64,000 nucleotides of DNA, from the NCBI GenBank assembly GCA_964619725.1, contig CAZUFC010000013.1, positions 32,001 through 96,000 on the forward strand, in the 5' to 3' direction. The DNA comes from an uncultured bacterium. GTDB lineage: Bacteria > CSSED10-310 > CAZUFC01. Of this stretch, positions 2,685 through 58,939 are shown piece after piece (the stretch's first letter is position 1; every line of letters starts with the position of its first letter). The position numbers were made by a program, and so were the translations under genes. The notes below the pieces were generated by a model that saw only the letters and a list, made by a program, of their open reading frames with translations, ran no database searches and was not told the DNA's origin.

Positions 2685-2730
2685 CGGAATACCCGGTTCC
2701 GACAGAGAGTTGAAATGAATTAACATAGCC

Positions 2731-2797
2731 TGTTCTGTGCCGTTGTCCGGTTAGTCTCGCCGTGTGCCGGACGACGGCGCAGAATATCTTTCCTTTA
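2731..2797 (+). terminator. Putative intrinsic terminator
   Basis: 20-bp stem (2731-2750 with 2767-2786, 3 G-U pairs) followed by a pyrimidine-rich tract. Confidence 0.6.
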
Positions 2798-2833
2798 TTC
2801 TTTGAAGTGCGATTACATTTCGACCGCTTTATC

Positions 2834-2863
2834 TTGACATTGCTTGACCGGCGCTGTTAAATT
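2834..2863 (+). promoter_or_regulatory. Putative sigma70 promoter
   Basis: TTGACA, 17-18 nt, then TTAAAT/TAAATT, upstream of the 3008 operon. Confidence 0.4.
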
Positions 2864-3007
2864 CTTTCCCTGATTTGTCGGGTTGCGTCTTTACGTCCCG
2901 GAATCTTATCAGGATGATTTGAAATCTGAAACGAACGCTGTAGCTAATTTCCCTGGCAATATCGCCGGCTTGGGCTTTCTCAGTCAAGCCTGAAAAGGAA
3001 CCTTAAA

Positions 3008-15315: not shown

Positions 15316-15388
15316 GGGCCCATAGCTCATGTGGTAGAGCCACCGGCTCATAACCGGTAGGTGCCAGGTTCGAGTCCTGGTGGGCCCA
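15316..15388 (+). tRNA. tRNA with CAT anticodon, most likely tRNA-Ile2 (lysidine-modified); 3' CCA not encoded
   Basis: Acceptor stem GGGCCCA/TGGGCCC, anticodon arm ACCGG-CTCATAA-CCGGT, T arm CCAGG-TTCGAGT-CCTGG. G1-C72 is paired, so not an initiator. The discriminator A is followed by CTT. Confidence 0.92.
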
Positions 15389-15467
15389 CTTACTTGCTTT
15401 GGTTTTCCGGGAGGAAACAAATACGTTGATTTCTTATATAAAATTCCCTTTTGGGAGAAGGATTCCG

Positions 15468-16279: not shown

Positions 16280-16661
16280 AGCGAGTCTGAGAGGCGATCG
16301 CCGTCATGTTCGCATGTCGGAGGAAAGTCCGAGCTCCGGAGAGCAAAGCGCCGGCTAACGGCCGGGAACCGCGAGGTTACGGAAAGTGCCGCAGAAAACA
16401 TACCGCCTAAGTCCAACGTTTTGAATAAGATTCGGACAAGGACCGGTAAGGGTGAAAAGGTGCGGTAAGAGCGCACCGCGTGTCCGGCGACGGTCACGGC
16501 AGGGCAAACCCCGCTTGGAGAAAGACCAAATAGGAGGACGCTTGAGGGCTGCTCGTCCGATGTCTTTGGGTAGGTCGTTAGAAGGATCGAGTAATCGATT
16601 CTCAAGATTAATGATCGCCGCCCTTCGAAGGGAACAGAACTCGGCTTATTGAAGGCTCGCT
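16280..16661 (+). ncRNA. rnpB: RNase P RNA, type A
   Basis: GAGGAAAGTCCGAGCTC, GAAAGTGCCGCAGAAA, GGTAAGGGTGAAAAGGTGCGGTAAGAGCGCACC, GGCAAACCCC, ACAGAACTCGGCTTA. The ends pair to form P1. Confidence 0.97.
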
Positions 16662-16663
16662 TT

Positions 16664-42645: not shown

Positions 42646-43095
42646 AACGTCCTTCCTCCCTCATCATTTTTGCACTTCGGATGATCAAAGTCAAAATATT
42701 GAATTCAGGCAAGAGGAGAACGGATTTAATTAAAGGAGAATGAGACGGTGTTTTGTGGAATTTCGGCATTGATCAAGTATCCGTGTTTCGGAGTTAAAAT
42801 TTTTACAGCCTAGAAAATCTGATAAAGACAAAGACATCTCCTCGTAATTATTTATTCCGATTTATGATACCGATCCGTGTAACGAAACAAACGGCTCTCG
42901 ATGAAAAAACAGGGGTGAGATCGTCAAACGGATAATTGTGGGGCAGGGTTAGTTTCTGAATTGGGATTTTAATCAGTCAATTATTTTAGGAAACAGCGTA
43001 CCAGCTCGGTTTGATCATTCACCGAATTTACATCTTGACATGAAAGATGGGATACAATAAAAAAATCAGGGCAAAAGCATTATCTTGCAGAAAGG

Positions 43096-44208
43096 ATGAA
43101 AATGGCTGTACCTTTTTTTAATCTTAACAGACAGTATGAAAAAATAGGACATGAGCTTGAGAAAGCCTTATTGGAAACGGCAAGCAGCGGAATGTACATT
43201 CTGGGAAAAAACGTGACGGGCTTGGAACAAGAAATGGCTGAATACTGCGGAACGAAATATGCGGTAGGCGCAGCATCGGGTACTGATGCGCTGATTTTGG
43301 CTCTGAAAGCGCTCGGCATCGGAAAGGGTGATGAGGTGATAACGACTCCATACTCTTTTTTTGCAACCGCGAGTTGCATTTACAGAATAGGAGCGCGACC
43401 GACGTTTGCCGATATAGAGCCCGATACTTATAATATAAATCCTGATGAAGTAAGGAAAAAAATTACTAAGAAAACTCGTGCCGTAATCCCTGTTCATCTA
43501 TTCGGATTGCCTGCTGATATGGATGAATTGAATGCAATCTCAAATGAATTTGATATCCCAATTGTAGAAGATGCCGCCCAGGCAATCGGAGCTGAATACA
43601 AAAACAAAAAAGTGGGTTCTTTCGGGAAGGCAGGCTGTTTCAGCTATTTTCCCACGAAGAACCTGGGAGGTATGGGAGACGGGGGGATCGTCACAACAAA
43701 CGACGAAAAAATTAAAGAAGAAGCGGCCAAATTGCGCGTACACGGCGGAGGCAGTTCTTACATTCATGAGAAAATCGGTTTGAACAGTCGATTAGATGAA
43801 ATTCAGGCCGCTGTCATTCGCGTTAAAATGAAATATCTGACGATGTGGAAAGAGGCTCGTTTTCAAAACGCCATGAAGTATTCCGAGCTTCTGGCGAACT
43901 TGCCTGAGGTCGTTCTCCCCGCAGAAAAAACAGACCGGCAATGCGTTTTCAACCAGTTCGTCATCAGAATCAAGGAAAAACGGGATGCTCTAATGGAGAA
44001 ACTCAAACAGCAGAAAATCGGATGCAATATTTATTATCCTTTGCCTTTGCATCAGCAGCCGTGTTTCCGTTATTTGAATTACGCTGCAGGAGATTTCCCG
44101 GAATCTGAAAAAGCATCTAAGGAAACTCTGGCCTTACCTGTGTTTCCCGAGCTTATGGATGAGGAGATAAATGAAACGGCACAGGCAATAATTCGATTTT
44201 TTGAGTAA
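43096..44208 (+). CDS. DegT/DnrJ/EryC1/StrS family PLP-dependent aminotransferase
   Basis: SGTDAL, GDEVIT, PVHLFG, EDAAQA.G, SYFPTKNLG..GDGG, NSRLDEIQAA. Confidence 0.95.
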   Translation: MKMAVPFFNLNRQYEKIGHELEKALLETASSGMYILGKNVTGLEQEMAEYCGTKYAVGAASGTDALILALKALGIGKGDEVITTPYSFFATASCIYRIGARPTFADIEPDTYNINPDEVRKKITKKTRAVIPVHLFGLPADMDELNAISNEFDIPIVEDAAQAIGAEYKNKKVGSFGKAGCFSYFPTKNLGGMGDGGIVTTNDEKIKEEAAKLRVHGGGSSYIHEKIGLNSRLDEIQAAVIRVKMKYLTMWKEARFQNAMKYSELLANLPEVVLPAEKTDRQCVFNQFVIRIKEKRDALMEKLKQQKIGCNIYYPLPLHQQPCFRYLNYAAGDFPESEKASKETLALPVFPELMDEEINETAQAIIRFFE

Positions 44209-44237
44209 AATTGAAACTTTGAATCGGAGGTTGAGGA

Positions 44238-45083
44238 ATGAAAAATTGGAATTTTGCCGCATATGTGGCTTTGTTTATTATGGGAACCTTCTTTTTTTCC
44301 GGTTGCGGTGAGAAATGGCCTGAAAACAATGAAACATGGGCCGAGAACACTTACATCACTGAGGGCAAAATAGAAATCGCTCACTACCACGGACAAACTA
44401 TGCTCAATAATGAATTAAAAAAATATGAGATGCTGACCGCCGTCCATCTGACCGGTTTCCAGCAGGACAGCGCTGTTGCCGCACCCGCACGCGACGAATC
44501 CAAGCTTAAAGTTCTCAGGCTATCTCAATTCTTTTCCATTCCAGATAAAATCCGGGATTCAAACTATAATCTGGTCATTTCAGCAGACCCGGGCAATCCT
44601 TTCAAAATGCTCCGGGCGACCTTTTCACTCCAATCAAACAAAGGAAACCTATTTAAATTGTTTGAAAACGGATCGGAAAAAGGTCGACTGAAATTTTTCA
44701 CAGACTATCCGTTGACCAAGCTCGCAAAAATAAATTGGGAAACCGAAAAAGATAAGGTTCTTCTGGACCTGCTGCCTTTGAGCCTCAGGTCGTTGCGTTT
44801 CGATCAGGAAAAAAGTTCCTCTTTCGATTTAACCGTCATTTCGTCTCTCATGGATTGCAAACTGCATCCTCCGACTCTTATGGATGTTGAACTGCAAGTT
44901 ACGAACAAAGAAAGCATAACGACGGGACTGGGCGCTAAAAATGCCTGGAGAGTTAGAATGGCTGCGGAGGAAGTGGAGTGGCAATATTGGTTTGAAGACA
45001 AGGCGCCTTATGTATTGCTGCAGGCTAGATCGAATAAAAACGATCAATGGTTGCTGAAGGACCTCAAGATAATCGAAAACTAA
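44238..45083 (+). CDS. Hypothetical lipoprotein
   Basis: GGAGG SD, lipobox FSGC, 281 aa. Confidence 0.65.
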   Translation: MKNWNFAAYVALFIMGTFFFSGCGEKWPENNETWAENTYITEGKIEIAHYHGQTMLNNELKKYEMLTAVHLTGFQQDSAVAAPARDESKLKVLRLSQFFSIPDKIRDSNYNLVISADPGNPFKMLRATFSLQSNKGNLFKLFENGSEKGRLKFFTDYPLTKLAKINWETEKDKVLLDLLPLSLRSLRFDQEKSSSFDLTVISSLMDCKLHPPTLMDVELQVTNKESITTGLGAKNAWRVRMAAEEVEWQYWFEDKAPYVLLQARSNKNDQWLLKDLKIIEN

Positions 45084-45153
45084 AAATGCTCTTTTGGCTT
45101 GAATTGCTTTGTTGATGATGTTATGATCGGTTATTCCATCGGGCGTTTCGCCG

Positions 45154-45427
45154 ATGGACGAACAGGTGAAAGGAGGGGGCAGTTTCGAATATCTTCCTGG
45201 GTCCGGCCAAATATTTAACGCTCGGGCTTGAAATTGTCGCTTCCACTGCAATAGGCCTTTTTTTAGGCCTTTACCTTGATTCAAAATTTGGGACCGAACC
45301 ATGGATGATGATCGTTTTTCTGATTTTTGGAATTGCCGCAGGTTTCTTGAGTTTGTTCAGAGCCGGCAGAATCGACGCCGAAGGAATAAAGCTTGACGAT
45401 GCCCCGGAAAAAAAGAAATTCGAATAA
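45154..45427 (+). CDS. atpZ: AtpZ (ATP synthase protein I, 2-TM type); 5' end frameshifted or non-canonical start; not in the ORF track
   Basis: Frame 45170-45427 encodes KYLTLGLEIVASTAIGLFLGLYLDSKFGTEPWMMIVFLIFGIAAGFLSLFR but has an in-frame TGA at 45167. ATG 45154 is in another frame. Confidence 0.75.
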
Positions 45428-45431
45428 CAGT

Positions 45432-45803
45432 ATGATTCCTGTTTTCAGAAACGCGCTTCTTATCGGAATCATCGCATCCTTTGTAGGACTGCTTATTTCA
45501 AGCTCGATTTTCTGGGGGATGCTGACCGGCGCCATTGTCGCTTTAGCTAATCTTGTTTCGGTCAATTTCCTCGTCAAAAGAATTGCGACTCCTGAAAAAA
45601 TAAAAAAACTCAAGTTGAAAATTTTCGGTGTTCTTATCTCCAAACTCCTTCTCATCGGATTGATCTTCTATTTCTTTCTCGTAATAGCCAAAATCAGTCC
45701 ATTGGGCCTCTTTGCAGGATTGACCGTAGTCCTTGCAGCCTTTATGATTCAGGCCGGCTTTTTTCATCCCAACAGATTATCGGATGAACCTCTTCAACGA
45801 TGA
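45432..45803 (+). CDS. atpI: ATP synthase subunit I (4-TM type)
   Basis: Hydrophobic protein with G...GA..A..N and K..L..P.G...G motifs, located between atpZ and atpB. Confidence 0.8.
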   Translation: MIPVFRNALLIGIIASFVGLLISSSIFWGMLTGAIVALANLVSVNFLVKRIATPEKIKKLKLKIFGVLISKLLLIGLIFYFFLVIAKISPLGLFAGLTVVLAAFMIQAGFFHPNRLSDEPLQR

Positions 45804-45818
45804 TAAACGGACGTTAAA

Positions 45819-46556
45819 ATGGAAGGCATTGCTCATACACTATGGATTACCGAAAAAGTTAATCAGGTCCTGGGCGGTCCCGCCTCAGCGCTGCTGACTG
45901 CTTTGGGCATTCAACATGATACGGCGACTCCGTTGCCCCAGCACCTCATCATCACCTGGGAAATAATAATTATCCTGACCATACTGGCGTATGTCTCTTC
46001 AAAAAGAATTTCCCTCATACCCAAAAAATTACAACATGTCTGGGAATTATTCGCTCAGGTCATTCTGCAATTGCTTCGGTCTGTACTAGGACCAAAAGGA
46101 GATAAATATTTTTCCCTGATTGCTTCTATGGCATTGTTCATCCTTATCGGTAATCTGATGGGCTTGTTTCCCTTCAGTTCTTCTCCCACCGCCAACCTCA
46201 ACACCACTGTCGCATGCGCATTGATCATATTCTTCTACTACCACTTCCAGGGCATAAAGGAACTCGGCTTGAAAAAATACTTGAAACACTTCATGGGACC
46301 TTCTCTCATCGCTGCGCCTTTCTTGATTCCCATAGAAACCATCAGTCATTGTTCGAGAGTGCTCAGTCTGTCCGTTAGACTATTCGGAAATATCATGGGC
46401 GAAGATATCGTCATTATCATTATTTTTTCTCTGGCTCCACTGCTGGCGCCCGTTCCCATGATGGCTTTCGCCATCTTTACCTCCATTCTTCAGGCGTTCA
46501 TTTTTATCATGCTCTCCATCATGTACCTCGCAGGAGCCGTCAGCCAGGAACATTAA
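45819..46556 (+). CDS. atpB: F0F1 ATP synthase subunit a
   Basis: P..LQ...E, N..GL.P, PTANLN, IE.ISH.SR.LSLSVRLFGNI, LQAFIF..L...Y. Confidence 0.97.
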   Translation: MEGIAHTLWITEKVNQVLGGPASALLTALGIQHDTATPLPQHLIITWEIIIILTILAYVSSKRISLIPKKLQHVWELFAQVILQLLRSVLGPKGDKYFSLIASMALFILIGNLMGLFPFSSSPTANLNTTVACALIIFFYYHFQGIKELGLKKYLKHFMGPSLIAAPFLIPIETISHCSRVLSLSVRLFGNIMGEDIVIIIIFSLAPLLAPVPMMAFAIFTSILQAFIFIMLSIMYLAGAVSQEH

Positions 46557-46620
46557 AGGATTATTCATTGAAAGGAATAAGATTTAAAATCAATTTTTGG
46601 AACTTCAAGGGAGGAATCTG

Positions 46621-46992
46621 ATGTTAAAAGGACTGTCGATTTTCACGTTAGCTTTAGTTTTCTTGTTCATTACAGCAGCCCCCATCGCCGCTCAAGAAGC
46701 TCATTCAAGTGCGGAATCAGAATCGGCTATGGACCCCAAAACACTCTACTTTATTGTCGTTGTCGTCGTGGCAAGCGTATGTATGATGCTGGCCTCTTCC
46801 ATGGCTATCCTGGGACAGAGCAGAGCTTTGATTACCGCAATCAAAGCAATCTCTAGACAACCCAACGCTCTTGCCGGCATTCAGACCAATCTGATCATCG
46901 GGCTCGCTCTGATAGAATCACTTGCTATTTATGTACTGCTCATCGCTCTGATTCTCTTCTTCGTGAATCCTTTTACGGAATACCTGGTCTGA
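46621..46992 (+). CDS. atpE: F0F1 ATP synthase subunit c with signal-like N-terminal extension
   Basis: RQP loop and IGLALIESLAIY. GGAGG SD before ATG 46621. Confidence 0.92.
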   Translation: MLKGLSIFTLALVFLFITAAPIAAQEAHSSAESESAMDPKTLYFIVVVVVASVCMMLASSMAILGQSRALITAIKAISRQPNALAGIQTNLIIGLALIESLAIYVLLIALILFFVNPFTEYLV

Positions 46993-47516
46993 TCTGAACA
47001 TCTTTCTCGATACATTAAAATATTCGCTTTCCTGGGTTTCAGTTTACCCCAATTTACAACCGGCTTAGAAGTTTTGACTGTAGAGGCCTGGCGAACTGCA
47101 GTGAATTTTGCGCATCTGAGTACAAAAATGACGGCAAGAAAGGCATTTCAAAAGTCTATTTAATAATCCTGCGTTCTCTGAGGGAATTCGGATTGCAGGA
47201 TTTCTAAGCGGCAAACACATGAAATTTTCTCAGTAGTATTGCAATGCGCTGGTTATGACTTGAAAAAGCCCGGCGGCTAATTCGGGGTAGCAAAAAGAGA
47301 TTGATCGAACCGGTAGAATAATTATTACGAAGTGCTGGATCACTAATAATAAATGTTTTGAAATAACCGTTAATGAGCAAAGAATTCATTCGCAGCGGTT
47401 CGGTCATGGAGGGCTTCGCATAACCTTTCGCAATAATATCCCGGGCGGTAAAAGCGTCTGCCGCACAACCGGCGAAAAAATGATTTTTCTATAAAAAAAC
47501 GACGGCTATTTTTTTC

Positions 47517-47545
47517 TTGACATTCACAATAGCATTAGGAATAAT
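47517..47545 (+). promoter_or_regulatory. Putative sigma70 promoter
   Basis: TTGACA-17 nt-AATAAT preceded by a T tract, about 210 nt before ATG 47756. Confidence 0.5.
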
Positions 47546-47755
47546 AAGAGAGTGTTACTTTCCTTACTGATGGAATAAGGATTCAAGTAACGGATTTGCT
47601 TAGGAAGCTCAGGAAGAATTGTAAAACCGATTTTGGTTAGCTAATGAAAGATATTTATAGAAACGCATGGATTCAAATGAGCTAGGCAGAGTGATTTTAT
47701 GAAAATTGCTTTATTGATGAAATTTTTTTTTACAGAAGGGAGTTGAGTAATTATA

Positions 47756-48511
47756 ATGCCTAAAGAAAAGGATATGGTCGATTTTATGCTTTATCTTTTA
47801 TCCGCCGGCAACTTTGTCCAGGAACAGAGCATCCCAACACACAAGGACAGGTTGTACAACACTTTCGGAAAGACTTTTCTAAGAGGGATCAAATCGCTTT
47901 CGGTCCTTTCAGGAGCTGCAGCCGATGCCCTGGCAGCCCAAAGGAATAGAGAGGAAGTGAAACAGAAACCAGAAGAGGAAAAAATAACGCCTCGTATACA
48001 ATATACCCCACAGGTCGTCGAAAAAGAACCCAGACCGGCGCCTTCTTACGATTATTCACCGCCGGAAAAAATGACGATACCCGATACTCAAAAAGAAGAA
48101 CCGGTCCCAGTGAGACCTCAGAAGCCTTTTGTACGAGTTCGCAAGCACAATAGAGACGAGTCCCGGAAGAAAACAACGGACACGACCTCAGAGACCTTCG
48201 ATGCGACGGAAAATGAGGAGCAGCAGATCACCGCAGTTCAGAGTCCTCCTCAGGATGATGTGCAGAAGAAGCCGGCTGCTGAAGTCCCACAGGAGCAATT
48301 CTACAAGATCAAGGAAAACGAAGCGGAAAACAATGACAGAGAGCCTGCCATATCAGGTGAAACATTCGAAAAGATCAGGGAAGAGGAAAAAGAAAAACTT
48401 AAAGAAAAATATCCTCATCTCCAGGATAAAGATTGGAACCGGGGATTGTGGAAGACCTGGCTTGATTTAGCCGTAAAAAACAGAATCGACGAAATGAAAG
48501 CGAAAAGCTGA
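47756..48511 (+). CDS. Hypothetical protein with long P/E/K/Q-rich disordered centre
   Basis: 251 aa, AAGGGGAG SD, helical-looking termini. Confidence 0.7.
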   Translation: MPKEKDMVDFMLYLLSAGNFVQEQSIPTHKDRLYNTFGKTFLRGIKSLSVLSGAAADALAAQRNREEVKQKPEEEKITPRIQYTPQVVEKEPRPAPSYDYSPPEKMTIPDTQKEEPVPVRPQKPFVRVRKHNRDESRKKTTDTTSETFDATENEEQQITAVQSPPQDDVQKKPAAEVPQEQFYKIKENEAENNDREPAISGETFEKIREEEKEKLKEKYPHLQDKDWNRGLWKTWLDLAVKNRIDEMKAKS

Positions 48512-48834
48512 ATCCCTTTGTTTTTTTAATGGGCGTAAACAAAAAACTTCATCGCCATTTTCATCTATGAACTGATTTGTTTTTGTTTATTAAAAGTGAG
48601 ATAAAGTGATTGGGAATTTCTTTTGTTGAATCTGAATGAGAAGCCTGTTATATCAGATTTTATGTTATTATATTATTTTATTTGTTAATTTTTGTCCACA
48701 TAAACGGCGAATTTTCCCCAATACTGAGTCAGTCTTCGGATTTGCTCAGTCAAAGTATAAGCGCCGCCCCTGCCTCGCAAATCCTTACCATCCTTGTCTT
48801 AAGAAAAATTCGCTCGTTTATGGATCAAAAACCG

Positions 48835-48988
48835 CAGTGACTGTCCGGCATTAAATTTTGAATCGAGAATCGAGTTTGTGGACAGTCACTTGTTAAGAAT
48901 ATTTAATAGTATTATTTTATAATTCATTAAACAGCGCCTGTCCGCAACGAATTTTTAACTCAGCATGCCGTGAGGCGGACAGACGTTG
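48835..48988. repeat. Two inverted-repeat pairs built on a CARYGHCTGTCC-like 12-mer
   Basis: AGTGACTGTCC 48836-48846 with GGACAGTCACT 48880-48890; CAGCGCCTGTCCGC 48932-48945 with GCGGACAGACGTTG 48975-48988. Confidence 0.55.
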
Positions 48989-49073
48989 CGAGTTTCCGGC
49001 TCGGAAACAAGAAAATCCGCAGCCTGCGAAGCATTGTAGGAAATCGCCGTTTAAGGACAAAAACAAGGTAAAT

Positions 49074-51071
49074 TTAATGCACGATCACGCCTGGTGGGAT
49101 TTCGCCGGGGAATTCAGCGAGCGTAATTGTTTCATCATTTATTCCGGCTGCCAGAATCATCCCTTCACTCATGCCGTGTTTCAGTTTTTCAGCTTTCAAG
49201 TTAGCGACGAAGAGGACTTTTTTTCCAATCAGTGTTTCCGGTTGATAGGAAAGTCCGATTCCAGCCAGGACGACTTTCTTGCCGTTTCCGGCGTCGAGCG
49301 TTATTCTTAAGTGTTTTGCAGCATCTGTTACTTTTTCTGCGCCGGTGATTTCAGCGACTCTCAAGTCTATTTTCAAAAAATCTTCCATTGAGATGCTGGG
49401 TTTGGCGAGCATTTCTTTCACGTCTGAAATATTGACGTTATTATTTTTCTTTTCAGAGGCATATATCATTTTTGAGAATTTATCGTTATTGGGGGAATTG
49501 ATCAAGCGGAAGAAGGGTCCGATTTTATGATTTTCCAGATTGAATTTATGATCGTTCCATGTCAGGGGTTTGATTCTTAGTATTTTCTCAGCTTCCATAG
49601 CAGTATGAGGTAATATGGGTTTTATAAAAACCACAAGCGCTTTGCAGAAATTTAGAACCGCTGTCGCTATTTTCCTCGCCTCCTGTTCATCCTTTTTTAC
49701 CAGCCGGGGAAGGTCGGCTTCTTTAAGGTATTTTATTCCCAGATCGGCGACTTTACGAATTTCTTCGATTGCAGAATTAAAATTGAGGCTGAGATAGTGA
49801 GTAAACAGAACCTGCGCTTTTTGTGAAATGTATTTTTCCAGTTTCGTTTGTTTTTCGGGCAAATTTGCAATACGACCTTTTAAATTTTGATGAATAAAAT
49901 TGATCAGGTTGTCGAATAGCCAATTCAGACGATCTGTCAGGTCCTCCTTGATTAGAGCATAAAATTCCTTTTCATTGAATTCGGCAGGTTTGATTGAAGA
50001 GGAGGAATTTGCAGCAAAGAAATATCTCAATGTTTCCGGATTAAAGAATTTTTCAAATACTTCAGCGGATATGTCGGGTTTGTCATCTGATGATGAACCG
50101 ACGATTACATCTCCATGCGCCACGATTCTCTCAGGCAGCGCAAAACGAGTGCCCATAAGAATTGACGGCCAGATCAGTGAATACATGTACCAGTCCTTGC
50201 TGCTCATGAAATGAAAAATATGTGACTTTGAGTTGGACCAGTGTTTCGCGTTTTTTCCTTCTATTTTGTCCAGATATTCTTCCGTTACAGCCGGAAAAGA
50301 AGCGGCGATATCAAAATATTCGTTGAAATACAAAGATTCCTCTCCTGGAATCGCAAATCCTAAATAATTCTGGTCACGGCTTATCTCCGCATCGGGCAGT
50401 TCTTCTTCCAGTTTTTCTTCAATATAACTTTTCACTTCTCCAGGAAAACTCTTCGGGTTCTTCAACCATTCTTTTAAACGATGTTTATACTCGGAAATCT
50501 TATAGAAATAATGCACTCTCGTCTTTTTCACATACTCGCTGCCGCAGCGGGCGCAGGCGTCTCCCGGTTCTGATTCTTCAATTGCAACGCCGCAAAAAGG
50601 ACAAGCGGATGTGCCGTTGAAAATTCCTCTGCAATGAGAGCATATTTTTTGAGATTCGAAGGGGGAAGCAAATAAATTACATGTTTCACAATAATTTTGT
50701 TCGGTTTCGGTTCTGTAAACGTGGTCAAGTCCTCTGAGCCGCCGGAAGAAAAGTTCAATAAAGTGTTTCGTTTTTGAGATATGCGTGGAATAAAGTCCGT
50801 CGAATTCTATTCCGAATTTTTGAAAAAATTTCCTTTTTTCTTCAATGACAGCGCTCAATTTCTTGTCGATTTCTTCTTTATTTTCGTCAGTTTCAGGTTC
50901 ATAAGACGGACTGTGGACCTGCAGGGCGCAGGTGAAAACAGAATCCTGGCTGGTCAGATTGAGAAACCGGTTAAAGATATCCGCTTTGACAAATTTGTAC
51001 AGATCCTCAATGGAAAACTCTCGATCAATGGACGGAACGGAACATGTAATAATTATTTTGTCATCCTTCAA
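49074..51071 (-). CDS. Methionyl-tRNA synthetase-like protein (MetRS2 architecture with C-terminal tRNA-binding domain), catalytic motifs degenerate
   Basis: Colinear with MetG (ADIF.RF, four CxxC, ISRD...GF.IPG, WP..L, HG, LRYFFAA, IDLRVA.I, VANLK, SEGMILAA), but HIGH and KMSKS are absent. Likely start TTG 51071 after AAGGGGAG. Confidence 0.85.
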   Translation of the reverse strand: MKDDKIIITCSVPSIDREFSIEDLYKFVKADIFNRFLNLTSQDSVFTCALQVHSPSYEPETDENKEEIDKKLSAVIEEKRKFFQKFGIEFDGLYSTHISKTKHFIELFFRRLRGLDHVYRTETEQNYCETCNLFASPFESQKICSHCRGIFNGTSACPFCGVAIEESEPGDACARCGSEYVKKTRVHYFYKISEYKHRLKEWLKNPKSFPGEVKSYIEEKLEEELPDAEISRDQNYLGFAIPGEESLYFNEYFDIAASFPAVTEEYLDKIEGKNAKHWSNSKSHIFHFMSSKDWYMYSLIWPSILMGTRFALPERIVAHGDVIVGSSSDDKPDISAEVFEKFFNPETLRYFFAANSSSSIKPAEFNEKEFYALIKEDLTDRLNWLFDNLINFIHQNLKGRIANLPEKQTKLEKYISQKAQVLFTHYLSLNFNSAIEEIRKVADLGIKYLKEADLPRLVKKDEQEARKIATAVLNFCKALVVFIKPILPHTAMEAEKILRIKPLTWNDHKFNLENHKIGPFFRLINSPNNDKFSKMIYASEKKNNNVNISDVKEMLAKPSISMEDFLKIDLRVAEITGAEKVTDAAKHLRITLDAGNGKKVVLAGIGLSYQPETLIGKKVLFVANLKAEKLKHGMSEGMILAAGINDETITLAEFPGEIPPGVIVH

Positions 51072-51358
51072 ATCGATTCTCCCCTTTCTGGCGCTGTTAC
51101 GAATAATACTTCCCGGAAAAGCCGGAGCTTTCCGGAGACACAACAGCATATACAAGTGTTTTTTGAAAAGCAAGAGCTTAGGGTGAAAATAAGGGAAGAA
51201 ATTATGCAGCAAAACATCGCAGATTCTTAACATTCCGGTCATCAGCAGCGATAGGCGAATAAATCGAAGGGGAAGAAATCATTTGATTTCGTCAGTTGAA
51301 TTCTCTAAGATAATCTGAAGCTTATCGATTCCGCAAACATTCGGGAGAGAGATCGCAC

Positions 51359-52012
51359 ATGAGATACATGAAACGTTACGAAAAACACATTCTGACTTTC
51401 GTGGTCATGCTTTTTTACATCGTCGGATATTTTGTCATAACTTCAGCCGTCTCTTCGTTGCCTTCTCATACGCTTTTTTCGAGTTGGGATCGTGAGTTGC
51501 CATTAAGGCCAGGATTCATTTATGTCTATCTTCAGGTCTATTTCATCGTTTTTTTGCCTGTCTTTCTGACGGACAGGATATCCCTGATCAGGAAATTCGC
51601 TTGCGCTTATATGGTCACGATGATTTGCAGTTATGCGCTTTTCATCATATTTCCCGTAGTAAGACCCAGGCCTGATGTTGAGCTCGTTAGTTTCAACAGT
51701 TTTTGTCTATCCGTGCTATACCGGTTAGATCATCCTACCGGATGTTTTCCCAGCCTTCATGTGGCTATGGCCACTTTGGCCTCTCTCTGCACCTTCTCCG
51801 TCAACCGCGCTTTCGGCATTTTTTCCTGGATAATGACATTGCTGATCGCTTTATCCACTTTGTTTATAAAGCAACACTTTGCAGCCGATGTCATTTCAGG
51901 AGCTTTTTTGGCCTGCCTCTCTTACTTGCTCGTTAAAAGCGAAATAAAGGCTATCGTTTTACAACCGCTCTTCAAAAGAACGGCTTCCGCTGAACAGGGA
52001 AATCATCCTTGA
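51359..52012 (+). CDS. PAP2-superfamily membrane phosphatase/phosphotransferase
   Basis: FP..RP, LY..D.P..CFPSLHVA, STLF.KQH...DV..G. Confidence 0.85.
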   Translation: MRYMKRYEKHILTFVVMLFYIVGYFVITSAVSSLPSHTLFSSWDRELPLRPGFIYVYLQVYFIVFLPVFLTDRISLIRKFACAYMVTMICSYALFIIFPVVRPRPDVELVSFNSFCLSVLYRLDHPTGCFPSLHVAMATLASLCTFSVNRAFGIFSWIMTLLIALSTLFIKQHFAADVISGAFLACLSYLLVKSEIKAIVLQPLFKRTASAEQGNHP

Positions 52013-52197
52013 CTGAGCAACCTCTTGACGCCTGGCTGAAAAACAACTGTTACCGGTAAGGAAACCATACGTGCGCGTCAAAAATTTTGTGGGGCAAATC
52101 ATTATGTGCTAAACTTGTCGTCGGGTAAGTCGTTGATGAGGAACCTTCTGAAAAACAGAGAATTTTTTGGTAATTCTTCTTAAGGGAAAGGCTGGAT

Positions 52198-53451
52198 ATG
52201 AATCGAACGAGTTTATTCGCTCAAGTTACAATTTTTTGCATCATCACCGCCGGCGGGCTCCTTCAAGAAACTGATGCAAAAAACCTTGATCTGATTAATG
52301 AAAAATCCCTATCTGAAATCAGGGAATCAGACAAATTGACGACATCAGACCAGGAATACTACATCGCTGATTTTTTCATTTCTGAAACAGGGATTTTAAG
52401 AGAAACAGAAACGCCGACATATCTTCCCAGCGTTACGCCCTCCGCTCCTCCTTCATTCACTTCCACGCCCATTCCCACAATAACAGTTTCCCCTTATTGG
52501 AGTCCAACCGGAGCAATTACTCCGCCTACCGAAACTCCGGTTGAAAGTCCCACTTTTTCATCAACTCCTACGGCCTTTTTCACCCATTCCCCCACCAGTA
52601 CGAATACTGCAACGCCGACACCGACTCCAACGGGTTTTTCAACGGTTACTGAAGTTCCTACCTTGCCGACTGCAACGGCCACAGCGAGCCCCACTTTTTC
52701 ATCCACGGGGACGCCATATCCGACTACAAGCGTTACTTTAACAAATACGCCCGATGAAACGGCGACGCCTACGCCCACAGTATCCTCATCAGGAACTCCT
52801 GTTCCGACGTTAATCCCGACAAATGCCTTCACCTTTACATCCACTCCGACAGAGACAATGACGTTTTCGCCTACCGGCACGGCAGTCGTTACCCCCACCG
52901 CTGAATTAACCCGGACAATCGCTCCTACGATGAGTCAAACTCCAACGCCACGCATTACGTTGACGCCCACATTGCCTCCTTTAGGGGTTATTCTTGAGTT
53001 ATCGGAAGAGGACGATTTTTGTTTCAGGACGGGCGATCTTTTTCGACTCGATGCCTGGATAAGCAATCCAGGTCCCGAAGAGTATGAAGGAGTTCCTTTC
53101 GTTGTATTGCTTGATATTGACGGAGAGTATTGGTGGTATCCGGAGTGGAGCAGTGATTTTACATATGCACAGGTTGAGTTGCCGAGTGGAACGAAAAAGT
53201 TGAGGATTCTGGACTTTATTTGGCCTGACGATCCTTCGGAAGAGGATGACGTGAGAATATACGCCGCTCTTTTAAATTATGAATTGACTGATTTTTTCGC
53301 TCCTGAGGGGGATTACGCCGGATACGATTATGTTGAATTCGACTATGGTTGCGATTGTCCCGGTTTTCATCCGGAACAGAAAGAGGGTCTTTTGAGAGAA
53401 CGGACTGAAGCGAATTCGCCGGCCCGGGAGCTCCCGTTTTTCACTCAATAG
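52198..53451 (+). CDS. Secreted Thr/Pro-rich (mucin-like) protein with C-terminal globular domain
   Basis: Signal peptide, about 190 aa of T/P/S repeats, then an aromatic-rich beta domain starting LGVILEL. Confidence 0.75.
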   Translation: MNRTSLFAQVTIFCIITAGGLLQETDAKNLDLINEKSLSEIRESDKLTTSDQEYYIADFFISETGILRETETPTYLPSVTPSAPPSFTSTPIPTITVSPYWSPTGAITPPTETPVESPTFSSTPTAFFTHSPTSTNTATPTPTPTGFSTVTEVPTLPTATATASPTFSSTGTPYPTTSVTLTNTPDETATPTPTVSSSGTPVPTLIPTNAFTFTSTPTETMTFSPTGTAVVTPTAELTRTIAPTMSQTPTPRITLTPTLPPLGVILELSEEDDFCFRTGDLFRLDAWISNPGPEEYEGVPFVVLLDIDGEYWWYPEWSSDFTYAQVELPSGTKKLRILDFIWPDDPSEEDDVRIYAALLNYELTDFFAPEGDYAGYDYVEFDYGCDCPGFHPEQKEGLLRERTEANSPARELPFFTQ

Positions 53452-53464
53452 CGCATTCTAGAGG

Positions 53465-55189
53465 ATGATGGATTCTCCAAAATCGAGTTCATACGTTAAG
53501 TCTTTTCGTGAATCGGTCGTACTTTTCGTCATAGTCATCGTTTCTCAATCGGTCGTATTTCATAAGGTACCTTATGATAATGTTGCGAGCAGAACGAATA
53601 TCGTATTATCGGTAATCAATCATGGAACTTTTCAAATCGATGCCTATCATGAAAATACTTTGGATAAAGCATTTCGATCGGGGCGCTATTTCTCCGACAA
53701 GGCGCCCGGAGGAGCGCTTCTGGCAGCATTGCTTCTTTATGTCCCGGTAAAAACGCTGAATTTTACCGGACTGCAAATTAGCGATGAAGTCGTCAGGTAC
53801 TTTGCGAGAATCCTGGTCGTCTCATTCCCCGTCGGCATCATGGCGCTGCTGATGTTTAATTGGGCTTCGGACCTGGTAAAATCTCACTCATTGCGTATGC
53901 TGCCTGTCTTGTTTTATGCGCTTGGAACACCGGCTTATCCTTACTCCACTTTATTCTATGGGGCTCAAACAGCGGCGGCTTTCGGTTTTTTTGCTTTTTT
54001 ACTCATAATTATGCCGCTCGGCAACAAAGAAGGGCCGAATAAAAAGTTCTTTTATCGAGGTTTCCTGGCCGGCGCTTTAGCTTCTTTTTCCGCTGCTTCC
54101 GTTTATCCTGCTGCCCTGCTATGGATACTCTGTTTTCTATTTACAATTTTTCTGAAAAAGTCTAAAGCTTCAATCCTTTCTTTCATCGCGGGTTCGATCC
54201 CGATAGCTCTGGGAGTCGCCTTATACCATCAAATCTGTTTCGGAGGCATCCTGCAGACGGGTTATCAGTATAAATTTCTGGAACATCATGCTCAGATGCA
54301 TTCGGAAGGTTTTTTCGGCATTACTGTTCCTTCTGCCGCCGCCCTCTGGGGTATAACCTTCAGCGTTGAAAAAGGTTTATTTTATTACGCGCCCCATTTG
54401 CTCTTCGGTATCGCCGGACTGTTTTACGTTCTTAAATCCAAATGGAAATCCGCAGCGCTGTTTTGCATTACCATTATTTTTACCTTCATCCTTTTCAACT
54501 CCGCATTCCAGGATTGGAAGGCCGGATGGACCTTCGGACCAAGACATCTGCTGCCCGCCATTCCTTATATGACAATAGGCAGCTTTTTTTTCCTCAAAGT
54601 CGCATCAACAAGAAAAAATCCGGAAAAATATTTCCTCATCTCAGTCTACTTTTGCCTGGGTATCGTCTCCATGTTTCCGACGTTTCTCGCCGCCTTTACT
54701 ACTCCGCATATACCCCTCTCTTTTGAAAGCCCGGTTTTTGAATTTCTTGTCCCAATTTTCATGAAAGGATACAGCGTCATTTCTCCGGTCAGTATGGCCG
54801 GTTTGCCTCCCCAGTCGGCGCCTGCTATTTTGTTCGTTTTCATCGCTTTGCTTATGCTTTATACCTTTTGGAAAAACAATGTCTTTAGACGAATTAACAG
54901 CGAGCGATTGTTAGGATTCCTCGCCGGCATTCTAACCGTTTCGATTTTTTTTGGACTTACAGCTTATTATTCGTTTAAAATCGCAAAGCCCGATAATTTT
55001 GAACGTAAAGGAGCGCGCGCCCAGGTGTTTTTGGCTGGAAAGATGTGGGATGAAGCGGAAACTGAAGCAAGAGAGATATTACGGCAAAATCAGAATGTCA
55101 GGTTCGCGTGGGAAATACTGGCGATTTGCAGAGAGAAAAAAAAGGAAAAGGAGAATAATAATGAAATATATAGGCGCGAAAATCAATAA
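53465..55189 (+). CDS. Polytopic membrane protein, probable GT-C-fold glycosyltransferase
   Basis: About 12 TMs. First loop N.ASR...ID.Y...T.DKA...YFSDKAPG, late W.AGW.FGPR.LLP motif, TPR-like tail. Confidence 0.6.
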   Translation: MMDSPKSSSYVKSFRESVVLFVIVIVSQSVVFHKVPYDNVASRTNIVLSVINHGTFQIDAYHENTLDKAFRSGRYFSDKAPGGALLAALLLYVPVKTLNFTGLQISDEVVRYFARILVVSFPVGIMALLMFNWASDLVKSHSLRMLPVLFYALGTPAYPYSTLFYGAQTAAAFGFFAFLLIIMPLGNKEGPNKKFFYRGFLAGALASFSAASVYPAALLWILCFLFTIFLKKSKASILSFIAGSIPIALGVALYHQICFGGILQTGYQYKFLEHHAQMHSEGFFGITVPSAAALWGITFSVEKGLFYYAPHLLFGIAGLFYVLKSKWKSAALFCITIIFTFILFNSAFQDWKAGWTFGPRHLLPAIPYMTIGSFFFLKVASTRKNPEKYFLISVYFCLGIVSMFPTFLAAFTTPHIPLSFESPVFEFLVPIFMKGYSVISPVSMAGLPPQSAPAILFVFIALLMLYTFWKNNVFRRINSERLLGFLAGILTVSIFFGLTAYYSFKIAKPDNFERKGARAQVFLAGKMWDEAETEAREILRQNQNVRFAWEILAICREKKKEKENNNEIYRRENQ

Positions 55190-55823
55190 GCCTAGATTCG
55201 CCGTTTTCATCGCTTCTTCGATCAGCCTCATGCTGCTGGCGGGGTGCGCTGCAGCCTTGAGCGGTAAGATTAAAGAAAGAGAAACCGCATATAATCTATC
55301 GGGAATCAAGGTCGTTATTGAATCGGAAAACAAAGTGCAGGAAACTTATTCCGATCAGAAAGGCAATTACAATTTCACCAATCTCAAAAAAGGCGAATAC
55401 GATATTAAAATCGAAGACAATCAGGATTATCTTCCATTTCATGCGGTTATAAGAATTCAAAAACCTGAAAAAATGATTAAGGACATCGAATTGAAACCGA
55501 TGCCGTCCATTAAAGGAAAAGTCTTTGACGGCGCCATGCCGGTAAACGGAATGAAGGTGGAATTGTGGTCGATCGATAGAAAAAATCATTTAAATTCAAT
55601 CACTGACGCCAAAGGGGAATTTCAATTTCCAGGTCTTCAACCAGGCGATTACTACCTGGAAGCTTTCAATAAGACAAAATCCTGCCGGCGAAAAGTGACG
55701 CTGGAATACGGAACGACAGTCCTGGACCTCTTTCTGGAAAAACCTGTCCGATTGGAACCGGGAAAAGTTCAAGGAAGAGAAAGTTCATTGCTAGGTACAG
55801 TTCCGCATCGCGACAGCAATTAA
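55161..55823 (+). CDS. Lipoprotein with two carboxypeptidase-regulatory-like (prealbumin-fold) domains
   Basis: GGAG SD then ATG 55161, lipobox LAGC, and T.SD..G.Y.F..L..G.Y and TDAKGEF.F..L.PG.Y repeats. Confidence 0.8.
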   Translation: MKYIGAKINKPRFAVFIASSISLMLLAGCAAALSGKIKERETAYNLSGIKVVIESENKVQETYSDQKGNYNFTNLKKGEYDIKIEDNQDYLPFHAVIRIQKPEKMIKDIELKPMPSIKGKVFDGAMPVNGMKVELWSIDRKNHLNSITDAKGEFQFPGLQPGDYYLEAFNKTKSCRRKVTLEYGTTVLDLFLEKPVRLEPGKVQGRESSLLGTVPHRDSN

Positions 55824-55835
55824 TTCCAATTACGG

Positions 55836-57536
55836 GTGAAAGTAATCATGGAAAACCAGCAGACTTCCCGAATAATACTAAAGATTGTTTTAAGCGCCGT
55901 TATATTGTTCTCTGTAACAATGACGATCGTTTTGGGCTTGCGCTTCTGGGATAAGCATACTTCAAAGGAAAAAAGGGCGGAACGCTATGATCAGAAACAA
56001 CCGGTAAAGAGTGATTTTCTTTTTAAATTGGAACTCAAAGGGAAAACTGACCGATTGTCTGAAACCAGAATCTTTTTCGAAGGAAGGGAAGTAGACAAGA
56101 AAGATTATGTAAAAAAAAGCGGAGATCGTTTTTTGTGCAATTTTCCGTTTGCCGCTTATTCTGCTGAACTGAAAAAATATGCTCTCGTGTTTGATCCGGA
56201 CGACAACGGAAAGGAACTCACTTTTCAGGAATATTTTGAGACGGATATAGACAAAGGCGAATATTTTTTTTCTAAAAACTTTGAAGATATTTTTCCGGAA
56301 GCCCTGAAAGATGAGACTAAAACTGTGAAGGAAAGAGCGGAGAGCGTTCCGGTAAAAATGAAAGACCAGGAAGAGAAGAAAAAGGTGACTGAAGCAGAGT
56401 CAGAGGTAGCTGATGGTGCGGACGAATCCCGGATGCGCCGGCCTGAACGAAAGTCGCCGCCCGCTAGCCCTGCATTCACTGGAAAATTAAAATTATCTGT
56501 AAAAAACCGCGATACCGGTGAGGCGGTTCAAGGTGCGATCGCTTATTTGAAAAACGGAGAGGATTGGCGTGCCGTTTCGCCTGGAACGGATACAAGCGGT
56601 GTAACTGAAGTGAAAAATCTGCCGAATGCGCCCTTCCTTTTGTCAATCAGACGAGAGGGATATGAGGATTACGAATTGAATATTGAAAAGAGCCGGGAAG
56701 ATTTTAATGTTTTAATGAAAGAGAAAAAATGTCATCTGACGCTCAATATAGGACCTGTTTCAGCGCTTGTTAAATATCGAGGAATCGTCATAGGCGAATC
56801 TTCTCCGGGCCGGGATTTCATTCATGCTTTCCCATGCAGTATAATAAAACTGCAGATACACCCGACCGACTCAGGAAAAGGATACGCTTCTGAAAAAAGA
56901 GAAATCGATCTCACCCAGGGAGACGTCACAAAGGAAGTGTTTCTTGTTGAAGATCACTATGAAACGGCGGAAAAGTTTTATGCTGAGGCGATGAAGACAA
57001 ATGATATTAAGCTCTTCGAGCAGGCGGCCATACAATATGAACAGGTTCGAATGATAGGCGTTACTCATCATGCTCGCAATAAATATTTAAACGCTCAGTA
57101 TTACGCGGGACAGATATATGCAGAGCAATTGTTCGAGTATGATAAAGCGAGAAAAAGTTTCATGAAAATAAGAGAGACGGATGCGCAGGCGAAGCCCACG
57201 ATATATTACTACCTGGCGAAGATCGACTTTGAATCGAACAATTACAGAGATGTATTCGAACATATGAACGATTTGAATTCATGTTCGGAATATCTGCCGG
57301 ACGAACAAAGGATGGAAATTTTATTCCGCACAAAATATTATCTGGCGAAAAGCGCATTCGAGATGTGGAAAACTTCTGATGATGCGGGGAAAGATAAAAT
57401 GCGGAAAAATGCAATCTATCATTTGAAAGACGCCATGGTGTATTACGATAAAGAACTTTCAGCGGACCAGAATGCGGCAGCGAGATTAAAAAGATATAAT
57501 GATGAATTGAAAGAACTGTTGAATTTTCTCGAATAG
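55836..57536 (+). CDS. Membrane-anchored protein with carboxypeptidase-like/PEGA-like and TPR regions
   Basis: N-terminal TM, V...TGE.V.GA...TD.SG and I.REGYE segments, and C-terminal TPR-like helices (AQYYAGQIY, YYYLAKI). Confidence 0.6.
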   Translation: MKVIMENQQTSRIILKIVLSAVILFSVTMTIVLGLRFWDKHTSKEKRAERYDQKQPVKSDFLFKLELKGKTDRLSETRIFFEGREVDKKDYVKKSGDRFLCNFPFAAYSAELKKYALVFDPDDNGKELTFQEYFETDIDKGEYFFSKNFEDIFPEALKDETKTVKERAESVPVKMKDQEEKKKVTEAESEVADGADESRMRRPERKSPPASPAFTGKLKLSVKNRDTGEAVQGAIAYLKNGEDWRAVSPGTDTSGVTEVKNLPNAPFLLSIRREGYEDYELNIEKSREDFNVLMKEKKCHLTLNIGPVSALVKYRGIVIGESSPGRDFIHAFPCSIIKLQIHPTDSGKGYASEKREIDLTQGDVTKEVFLVEDHYETAEKFYAEAMKTNDIKLFEQAAIQYEQVRMIGVTHHARNKYLNAQYYAGQIYAEQLFEYDKARKSFMKIRETDAQAKPTIYYYLAKIDFESNNYRDVFEHMNDLNSCSEYLPDEQRMEILFRTKYYLAKSAFEMWKTSDDAGKDKMRKNAIYHLKDAMVYYDKELSADQNAAARLKRYNDELKELLNFLE

Positions 57537-57543
57537 AGATTAA

Positions 57544-58938
57544 ATGAGATTACCTAACGTGATAACCTTTTTAAAACATGGTAGACAGTCGGTCTTCAGC
57601 AATTTTAGAGAATTTTCTTTACTCCGTGGGTGGGGCGGAGCGCCGGCATACCGTTTTAAGGGGGGACAATCTTTACTTTTTTTGATCGTTTGCTGTTTTG
57701 CGGTAATTATGTTTTTCGTTGAGGCATCGTTCTGCAACGATCAGAGTATTGTTGGCGAATTACGGTGGGATGAGAGTTTGGGCTATTCATATGCACAGTT
57801 GATGGAAAGACCTGTTATTATGAAGAGCATAGAGTTGTCGGCTGCTTCTCCTGAAACGGGACGGATACAGCATCCGAAGTTTTCTCCTTCAGGACGGCAT
57901 ATAGCTTTTGAAATTGAAAGAGAGGAAACGATAGAGCTATGGATGTTAGACCTTAAAACGAAAAGTAAACAGAAAGTAGAGACGGAGAGCAGCGGATACT
58001 TCGATTCTAATGAAATAACGGGAGATATGGATTGGAGTCCGCTTATCATTAATGACAAGGAATGGTTCGTATTCGTTCACAAGGACAGATCGGAAAACGT
58101 GTTATTGCTCAATTACATAAAGGACGGCGTTATCGGTTCTTCTCATCAAAGATTAACTGGGATAGAAAACCGTTTTTTGCTCTCCTCTCCCCAATGGAGT
58201 TCGGATGCGGAATTTCTGATTTTCTATTCGACTCAATCCGGATTCGGGGATATTTTCATCATTCCGGATATAAAAAAGAATCTCTCAGGCGCCGGCGTAA
58301 ATTTTGTTGAGACGAAAAGATTGAGAGGTCAGAGCAGCGATCTGGAACCGGAATTATGGCCCTCCATCATCAAAGATGATACGGGAAACTATTTCGCGTT
58401 CTATTCCTCGCCAGGCGAAAATGATAATTATCAGATCAGGCAACTTTGGTTTTCAAGGAATAAAATACCCAAAAAACAGAAGGATTACCTTTTTTGGGGT
58501 GATCCGCTTTATGATGCCGTCAGGCCGTCTTATATCGATAAGCACAAGCTGGCTTTTTACAGAACAAGGAGAAGTTTAAGCCGGTCTACCCATACGACCA
58601 TATGCATTTTTGATCCTGATGAACGAAAACTGATTGAGATTGCTGAAAAAGAGGGAGTCGTTCCCAATAAAAGAAGGGGGCCGTTGGTTTTTGAAGGCGG
58701 TATGCTTTATACGGGAGCGAGTAAATTTGAAAACAATCCCATCGTGATGACGGATTTTAATGGAAATGAAATTTTTCGATATGATAAAACGGTTCATAAT
58801 TTTGACATTGACGTTTATCACGATGTGAAGGCTAATTGTTTTAAACTGACCTACACAGCAGTAAAAAATGGAAAATCCTGTCTTTTCCTGGCCTTTCTCA
58901 ATATAAACGACAGGATGGGAATATCCGGGAAGCCTTGA
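57544..58938 (+). CDS. TolB-like beta-propeller protein
   Basis: P.FSPSG..IAF, WSP and PQWSSD...LIF.S repeats after a TM/signal segment. Confidence 0.65.
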   Translation: MRLPNVITFLKHGRQSVFSNFREFSLLRGWGGAPAYRFKGGQSLLFLIVCCFAVIMFFVEASFCNDQSIVGELRWDESLGYSYAQLMERPVIMKSIELSAASPETGRIQHPKFSPSGRHIAFEIEREETIELWMLDLKTKSKQKVETESSGYFDSNEITGDMDWSPLIINDKEWFVFVHKDRSENVLLLNYIKDGVIGSSHQRLTGIENRFLLSSPQWSSDAEFLIFYSTQSGFGDIFIIPDIKKNLSGAGVNFVETKRLRGQSSDLEPELWPSIIKDDTGNYFAFYSSPGENDNYQIRQLWFSRNKIPKKQKDYLFWGDPLYDAVRPSYIDKHKLAFYRTRRSLSRSTHTTICIFDPDERKLIEIAEKEGVVPNKRRGPLVFEGGMLYTGASKFENNPIVMTDFNGNEIFRYDKTVHNFDIDVYHDVKANCFKLTYTAVKNGKSCLFLAFLNINDRMGISGKP

Positions 58939-58939
58939 A

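Follow-up and report, generated by a model that had tools for sequence, protein, structure and literature searches.

An intact methionyl-tRNA synthetase paralog with replaced signature residues in an uncultured bacterium: a candidate pseudoenzyme

Analysis of a 64,000-nucleotide stretch of DNA from an uncultured bacterium of the lineage CSSED10-310 (contig CAZUFC010000013.1, positions 32,001 to 96,000; hereafter the window) reveals a gene at 49074..51071, on the minus strand, whose product has the length, the domain order and the predicted fold of a methionyl-tRNA synthetase (MetRS) and has lost the signature residues on which MetRS catalysis depends. We refer to this product as pseudo-MetRS. 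The reading that we prefer, to which we assign a probability of about one half, is that of a MetRS-derived pseudoenzyme that is maintained by selection, non-catalytic, dimeric and able to bind tRNA or another RNA. The doubt on this reading as a whole sits mostly on the RNA-binding step.

The open reading frame (ORF) comprises 665 codons and a stop, with no internal stop and no frameshift. This agrees with the uninterrupted frame of about 665 codons described in the initial annotation, which had not given the strand. The remaining five frames across the same interval carry 23-45 stops apiece, and thus the frame is not a chance ORF. Translation is assigned to a TTG codon at 51071, and the stop codon occupies 49074..49076. 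The longest possible frame begins at an ATG at 51242 and would give a protein of 722 amino acids. The TTG is favored because the 57 extra upstream residues match nothing, because a public record (P0002) holds the identical 665-residue form, and because a Shine-Dalgarno-like GGGGAG is found 7 nt upstream of it (51079..51084, minus strand, read from the sequence).

Pseudo-MetRS is colinear with MetG along its entire length, as had been proposed. It is matched by the Pfam models tRNA-synt_1g (PF09334; 192.7 bits, 1.1e-56, profile positions 2-384 of 391), Anticodon_3 (PF19303; 3.1e-7) and tRNA_bind (PF01588; 1.5e-17), while the NCBIfam model PRK00133 (metG) spans the protein end to end (profile positions 4-675 of 676). 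The Rossmann-fold catalytic body with its connective-peptide insertion, delimited by PF09334 and the alignments, takes up residues 1-365 (49977..51071). It is followed by a helical anticodon-binding-like domain (residues 366-530, 49482..49976), a linker of low confidence (residues 531-557, 49401..49481) and a Trbp111-like tRNA_bind domain of the oligonucleotide-binding (OB) fold (residues 558-665, 49077..49400), all encoded on the minus strand. An AlphaFold2 model computed from the 16-row alignment A2 has a mean predicted local distance difference test score (pLDDT) of 84.6 and a predicted template modeling score of 0.75. Low confidence is confined to residues 167-169, to residues 327-330 in the former KMSKS loop and to residues 545-558 in the linker, with values under 50 in the latter two segments. 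The top Foldseek match of the model is E. coli MetRS (PDB code 1pfw; E 4.5e-43, 24% identity), on which it superimposes with a template modeling (TM) score of 0.91 (target-normalized) and a root-mean-square deviation of 2.8 Å. In the model, the domain architecture and the fold of a MetRS are retained.

The functional sites within this fold are replaced. The replacements agree in four alignments, which include those to PDB chains, E. coli among them, and the MAFFT alignments A1 and A2. At the former HIGH site (residues 12-23), the canonical PYANGxxHxGH reads PSIDREFSIED, HxGH having become SIED, and at the ADD site (residues 48-54) the canonical CADDxHG reads CALQVHS. In the two segments of the former methionine pocket (residues 247-259 and 287-297), YVWLDAPIGY is replaced by NEYFDIAASF and HFIGKDIxYFH by HFMSSKDWYMY. 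In the KMSKS loop (residues 324-333), SDDKP stands in place of KMSKS, within GSSSDDKPD, and a three-residue deletion follows; the loop is acidic, shortened and modeled at low confidence, and only its second lysine column (K331) is retained. In the anticodon-binding-like domain, the N and R of the anticodon helix have become W384 and N388, and the canonical PW has become LP (L454 and P455). The initial annotation had described the anticodon-reading positions as gone. This stands for both the N/R pair and the PW pair, but the segment NWLFD by which it had placed the former was off by one in register.

In the E. coli numbering, which agrees with the chain index, the catalytic changes are Y15S, H21S, H24D, D52Q, W253Y and H301Y, and those of the anticodon readers are N391W, R395N and W461P. 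The methionine-binding residues (Y15, D52, W253, A256, Y260 and H301, likewise matched to the chain index) have S14, Q51, Y252, I255, F259 and Y297 in their columns. N391, R395 and W461 are the residues that read the CAU anticodon in the E. coli enzyme.

The extent of the loss was quantified in a 62-row alignment made of 16 locus ORFs, the first 45 representatives of 620-950 amino acids and pseudo-MetRS itself; one further row, L024, was left out because its longest ORF had a branch of length 10. Among the 61 MetRS, 66 columns are at least 90% conserved, and pseudo-MetRS retains half of them (33/66). When each MetRS is compared in the same way with the other 60, the fraction kept ranges from 0.87 to 1.00, with a median of 0.97. 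The HIGH region, ADD, the methionine pocket, GKD..H, KMSKS and the anticodon readers are all among the 33 lost columns. By profile scores, pseudo-MetRS falls below the cut-offs of both equivalog models (392.7 bits vs 587 for PRK00133 and 227.7 vs 336.35 for TIGR00398), and its 192.7 bits to the catalytic Pfam model compare with 480-511 bits for five of its nearest relatives. Every motif is present in 15 of the 15 best database relatives (alignment A2). Judged from these alignments, the ATP-binding (HIGH and KMSKS), methionine-pocket and CAU-reading residues are all replaced in pseudo-MetRS. With the class I signatures and the methionine and anticodon contacts replaced without exception, the protein should be unable to aminoacylate; the site replacements listed by the initial annotation, and the lack of activity that it proposed from them, are supported in silico.

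Two parts of the molecule have been preserved. Four CxxC zinc knuckles are found at residues 128-131 (CETC), 144-147 (CSHC), 157-160 (CPFC) and 173-176 (CARC), encoded at 50544..50690 on the minus strand, and they account for 8 of the 11 cysteines of the protein. The columns of C144, C157 and C160 belong to the set conserved at 90% or more, and C147 is invariant in alignment A2. The second part is the Trbp111-like domain, which matches tRNA_bind with 63.9 bits against a gathering cut-off of 27. We expressed conservation as an identity ratio, namely the identity of pseudo-MetRS to other MetRS relative to their identity among themselves. The catalytic body has a ratio of 0.64, the anticodon domain one of 0.78 and the Trbp111-like domain one of 0.95; four short MetRS do not have this last domain, and its value is drawn from the other 57 rows. 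With 9 of its 10 conserved columns retained, the C-terminal domain is the best-kept part of the protein and appears to evolve at a normal rate. The preservation of both the knuckles and this domain had been noted from the sequence, and it holds.

The C-terminal domain is also the part for which a dimer can be modeled. A homodimer of residues 555-665 obtained a score of 0.83, the best of three controls reaching 0.00, although such a score may reflect memorized solved dimers. Contacts coincide between the runs to at least 98%, and the partner chain has a pLDDT of at least 89. Among proteins with solved structures, the mark applied to the dimer score is passed by 20 of the 30 that are same-chain pairs and by 1 of the 23 that are single chains. 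The model thus points to a likeness to solved dimers and is not proof of binding by this copy.

Relatives of pseudo-MetRS were sought widely, and every match is distant. The best non-self match in a word-indexed search of 5.8 billion clusters has 28-31% identity, and the best match in a full HMMER search of 1.84 billion representatives has 32% identity (289 bits). No closer relative was found in 40 other genomes, 13 species of the same phylum included. Among JGI metagenome contigs, none of 116 pattern matches proved to be a relative; of 69 pattern matches in GTDB genome contigs, tblastn upheld 1, a 33% local match over residues 526-600 and no ortholog. A search of the ESM Atlas returned ordinary MetRS clusters only. 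The 90% cluster of pseudo-MetRS has one member, from one contig. The initial annotation had made much depend on orthologs with the same losses, and in these collections none exceeds 32% identity. This absence says little, because the host organism has no sampled kin closer than the phylum.

Other copies without the two signatures were looked for with a crude motif screen of 243 database relatives of at least 480 amino acids, followed by alignment A3. The sole other ORF that lacks both is P0230 (527 amino acids), in which HxGH has become QLGQ and KMSKS has become RMAGR. Its anticodon-reader stretch is deleted, and part of its methionine pocket is kept (alignment A3). P0230, likewise a singleton, comes from one metagenome contig of 5.3 kb and is 22% identical to pseudo-MetRS. 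As a second motif-less singleton so remote from the first, it suggests that dead MetRS-like copies may arise repeatedly and rarely.

The losses at the functional sites raise the question of whether the gene is simply decaying. A redundant metG copy that had lost its function and was drifting, with its open frame a passing state, would be expected to look like pseudo-MetRS in several respects. It would be a singleton without ortholog; its GC content at third codon positions (GC3) could lie under the range of the genome, as that of pseudo-MetRS does; and it could sit on a very long branch. A quick tree search on 63 rows and 536 columns, with the Shimodaira-Hasegawa-like approximate likelihood ratio test (SH-aLRT) as the only support, gives pseudo-MetRS an end branch of 3.7 changes per site, which is 4.7 times the median of 0.79. 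The motif-less singleton P0230 is likewise what one would expect if such copies were short-lived. We nevertheless consider a relic unlikely. In 2000 runs that placed random point substitutions in the pseudo-MetRS gene, it took a median of 13 substitutions to create the first stop, equal to 1.5% amino-acid divergence, and no run went beyond 12.6% without one. Pseudo-MetRS is about 70% different from every MetRS, and yet it has no frameshift and has lost none of the 8 knuckle cysteines and just one of the 10 conserved C-terminal columns. Because the frame is intact at this divergence and the knuckle cysteines and the OB domain are kept, we infer that the gene is not in neutral decay and that purifying selection maintains its protein product. 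The proposal that the copy is maintained rather than decaying is supported as far as sequence carries.

The genome also encodes a canonical MetRS. The assembly is a metagenome bin of 9.17 Mb in 344 contigs, 90.9% complete, and a separate metG, whose presence the initial annotation had asked to have confirmed, is found on another contig (C27:31527-33869; positions 1456-3801 of locus L001). Its product scores 487 bits in Pfam and 618.2 against the cut-off of 587 in NCBIfam. The C-terminus of this resident, apparently functional MetRS is a B3_4 domain, known from the PheRS beta subunit, and not a Trbp111-like domain. Its ortholog in another genome of the phylum (G004) has a tRNA_bind-like stretch within its own 709-residue frame, and the database MetRS P0122 and P0123 carry B3_4 together with tRNA_bind.

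Pseudo-MetRS could be a partner or regulator of the resident enzyme, tuning or scaffolding it within a hetero-oligomer. Both genes are in one genome, and regulatory non-catalytic synthetase paralogs exist, HisZ being one of those listed in Table 1 of a 2022 review (PMC9437257). The initial annotation had pictured this as pairing with the true MetRS by way of the C-terminal domain. That form is not supported: the resident enzyme carries B3_4 where the Trbp111-like domain would be and thus lacks the interface that such a heterodimer would use. The genes also lie apart, on different contigs, and the two proteins are only 24% identical. On balance this role is somewhat less probable than the relic. 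The sole other tRNA_bind domain in the genome belongs to a standalone frame of 132 amino acids on contig C48, whose product would be a more natural candidate for a hetero-partner than the resident MetRS.

The two MetRS-like proteins of this genome also differ in their apparent origin. The resident metG looks vertically inherited, since it is sister to the same-phylum MetRS of G004 (44% identity; SH-aLRT 92). Pseudo-MetRS groups with P0122, P0123, P0126, P0128, P0137 and P0143, at a weak support of 84-90, and one of these six clusters holds records named Candidatus Woesearchaeota. A recent in-genome duplication of the resident metG was considered and rejected, though weakly, as the tree places pseudo-MetRS elsewhere. 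Forcing pseudo-MetRS, the resident metG and G004 into one clade costs 36.9 log-likelihood units (p = 0.025 in the approximately unbiased test), for a group that was named after the tree had been seen and with a long branch, which is a known hazard. The low GC3 and overall GC content of the gene are compatible with a foreign origin and likewise with relaxed constraint, and in codon-usage correlation the gene is unremarkable (0.63, 33rd percentile). Taken together, descent from a different, possibly archaeal-type, MetRS lineage is more likely, and a foreign origin is the better guess.

A further possibility is that pseudo-MetRS is still an enzyme, with an active site rebuilt for new chemistry or a new substrate. 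MshC and PoxA are synthetase-like enzymes with other chemistry. K331 in the KMSKS-loop lysine column, H53, D254 and H287 are kept, and MetRS-like domains have been recruited for other reactions (PMC8664883). The MetRS-like enzymes described in that source are, however, ATP-dependent and need the lysine of the ATP motif, while in pseudo-MetRS both ATP signatures are gone and the former KMSKS loop is acidic and shortened. No cupin is found in the ORF, and neither a cupin nor a hydroxylase in the 18 neighboring ORFs scanned. The match to the PyrN domain reaches 48.6 bits, against 240.6 bits for MetRS, and ranks 35th in Foldseek. We regard an active enzyme of this kind as improbable, more so than a partner of MetRS. 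Least probable by far is a binning artefact in which contig C13, which carries pseudo-MetRS, and C27 come from different organisms: the bin is fragmented and partly contaminated, but both contigs carry and end in the same interspersed repeat of about 205 bp (133 copies of at least 180 bp on 96 contigs), their tetranucleotide correlation of 0.951 is inside the normal range of the bin (median of contig to mean 0.954), and no cell could live on pseudo-MetRS alone. By virtue of the shared repeat family and this correlation, C13 and C27 are taken as one organism.

We return to the reading of pseudo-MetRS as a selected, dimeric, tRNA- or RNA-binding pseudoenzyme. Following class I synthetase enzymology, the protein would neither form Met-AMP nor charge tRNA. 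As its intact frame suggests, it would be retained by purifying selection. Homology of its C-terminal domain predicts dimerization through that domain, and the same homology, to Trbp111 and the MetRS C-domain, predicts that tRNA or another structured RNA would be bound by shape and not by anticodon. The large inert MetRS body may then act as a scaffold or as a sequestering surface.

Several observations weigh against this reading. The anticodon readers are gone, tRNA binding is a prediction by homology, and the C-terminal domain itself, at 63.9 bits in Pfam, scores below the 91-97 bits of five near relatives. The confidence of the AlphaFold2 model may be inherited from the canonical MetRS rows of its 16-row alignment. 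No ortholog that would show conservation was found in the collections searched, where the best identity is 32%. Four DNA runs list no variant inside the gene (43000-58000 compared), but they are contigs at a depth of about 8 from one microbial-mat study, and this result is uninformative. The metagenome bin is 6.5% contaminated, and the gene has a GC3 of 0.423 and a GC of 0.407, below the respective 5th percentiles (0.452 and 0.427) of 1096 long ORFs.

A bolder version can be offered as a tentative proposal by analogy, well short of the confidence we place in the pseudoenzyme as such. A foreign MetRS body, possibly of DPANN-archaeal type, may have lost both catalysis and anticodon reading and have been retained as a zinc-bearing dimer that senses or sequesters tRNA and would couple the state of the tRNA pool to a cellular response. 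If this is true, pseudo-MetRS would be a new kind of bacterial pseudo-synthetase and would, by analogy, stand to MetRS as HisZ, or the HisRS-like domain of GCN2, stands to HisRS.

The surroundings of the gene offer no evident pathway link among the 18 neighboring ORFs scanned, none of which belongs to an amino-acid pathway. The divergent neighbor encodes a PAP2-family membrane protein (51359..52012), the convergent one is a K/E-rich ORF (47756..48511), and pseudo-MetRS would form a single-gene transcription unit. A terminator-like hairpin followed by a T run is found 44 nt past the stop codon (49016..49030, minus strand). It is weak, because the consensus scan that detected it found 3 such sites where 3.1 were expected in shuffled sequences. 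At the gathering score, Rfam returned nothing adjacent to the gene, only a distant tRNA and RNase P. These are a tRNA-Met gene with anticodon CAT (15316-15389) and a bacterial class A RNase P RNA (16282-16663, 300 bits), both some 33-34 kb away from pseudo-MetRS and with no evident link to it. A permissive Rfam scan of 48450-49120 gave two matches to plant miRNA, which is chance level. Farther out, at 52198-62047, a run of large same-strand ORFs begins with a Pro/Thr-rich protein of 417 amino acids. Most of these ORFs are without a Pfam match, and the remaining ones match CarboxypepD_reg, TPR or SH3 domains; the run looks like a cluster of cell-surface or secreted proteins.

A copy of the interspersed repeat (about 205 bp) is located at 48685-48890, and a partial inverted arm (49045-49067) adjoins the stop codon of pseudo-MetRS. 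With inverted arms at its ends, the repeat looks like a miniature transposable element. The median identity of its copies is 86%, Rfam finds nothing credible in it, and several contigs, among them C13 and C27, end in it. In the best-covered run, the word depth is 2136 at the repeat versus about 8 in the flanks, and the contigs of that run break there. Another copy (C27:30959-31159) precedes the canonical metG by about 370 bp.

The literature searched contains no catalytically dead MetRS, within full-text coverage that excludes most subscription journals. The available text of the 2022 review of duplicated synthetases does not mention MetRS (PMC9437257), and in a survey covering more than 2500 prokaryotic genomes MetRS paralogs come up in the available text solely as genes for resistance, although its supplements may list more (PMC5388404). 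This is consistent with the view of the initial annotation that no MetRS equivalent has been described, a view that had left out the active family of hydrazine-synthetase MetRS-like paralogs. The LeuRS pair of Natrialba was considered as a precedent for a dead paralog and dropped, as according to the abstract both enzymes are active.

Comparison with known systems places pseudo-MetRS among retained synthetase paralogs. With type-1 MetRS of the E. coli MetG kind it shares the domain order, the length, the fold (TM 0.91 to 1pfw), the knuckles and the C-terminal OB domain; it differs in having no HIGH, no KMSKS and none of the methionine and anticodon residues, in falling below the equivalog cut-offs and in its branch of 4.7 times the median. 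Residues 558-665 are 35-44% identical to domains of the type of Trbp111, the MetRS C-domain, CsaA and YgjH, and the same kind of homodimer is predicted, but in pseudo-MetRS this OB domain is fused to a large inert synthetase body and its tRNA binding is putative. HisZ is likewise a synthetase paralog without aminoacylation that is retained for a non-translational role. It is the HisRS-like regulatory subunit of ATP phosphoribosyltransferase, belongs to class II and is widespread. HisZ has a known partner, HisG, whereas none is visible for pseudo-MetRS in the 18 neighboring ORFs.

LeuRS-I of Sulfolobaceae is, like pseudo-MetRS, a full-length class I paralog that stands beside an active copy and cannot charge tRNA; it matters for growth, in a role that may depend on tRNA (PMC9437257). 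LeuRS-I nonetheless binds tRNALeu and makes leucyl-adenylate (PMC9437257), and it is found throughout a family, whereas pseudo-MetRS is a singleton without adenylation signatures. The same review describes the half-dead TyrRS pseudo-dimer of trypanosomatids (PMC9437257). The MetRS-like domains of hydrazine synthetases (PyrN, Spb40 and relatives) are also derived from MetRS and do not charge tRNA (PMC8664883, PMC12376268). They are ATP-dependent, need the motif lysine, are fused to or paired with a cupin and are found in biosynthetic clusters (PMC8664883); pseudo-MetRS, with no ATP motifs, no cupin, no such cluster and a weak PyrN match, is unlike them.

Non-catalytic paralogs such as HisZ and LeuRS-I show that the oldest enzymes of translation are reused, and a MetRS example with both adenylation signatures erased was not found in the literature searched. 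The weight of the present case is limited by its being a singleton from one uncultured mat bacterium, in one genome so far. Within that limit it is a clean natural experiment, in which a protein has been left with its zinc knuckles and its Trbp111-like domain after the loss of the whole active site and of the anticodon readers, and this pattern of loss and retention points to what the non-catalytic parts of a MetRS can do alone. The non-catalytic synthetase paralog is an already known kind of protein, and pseudo-MetRS is a case of it derived from MetRS.

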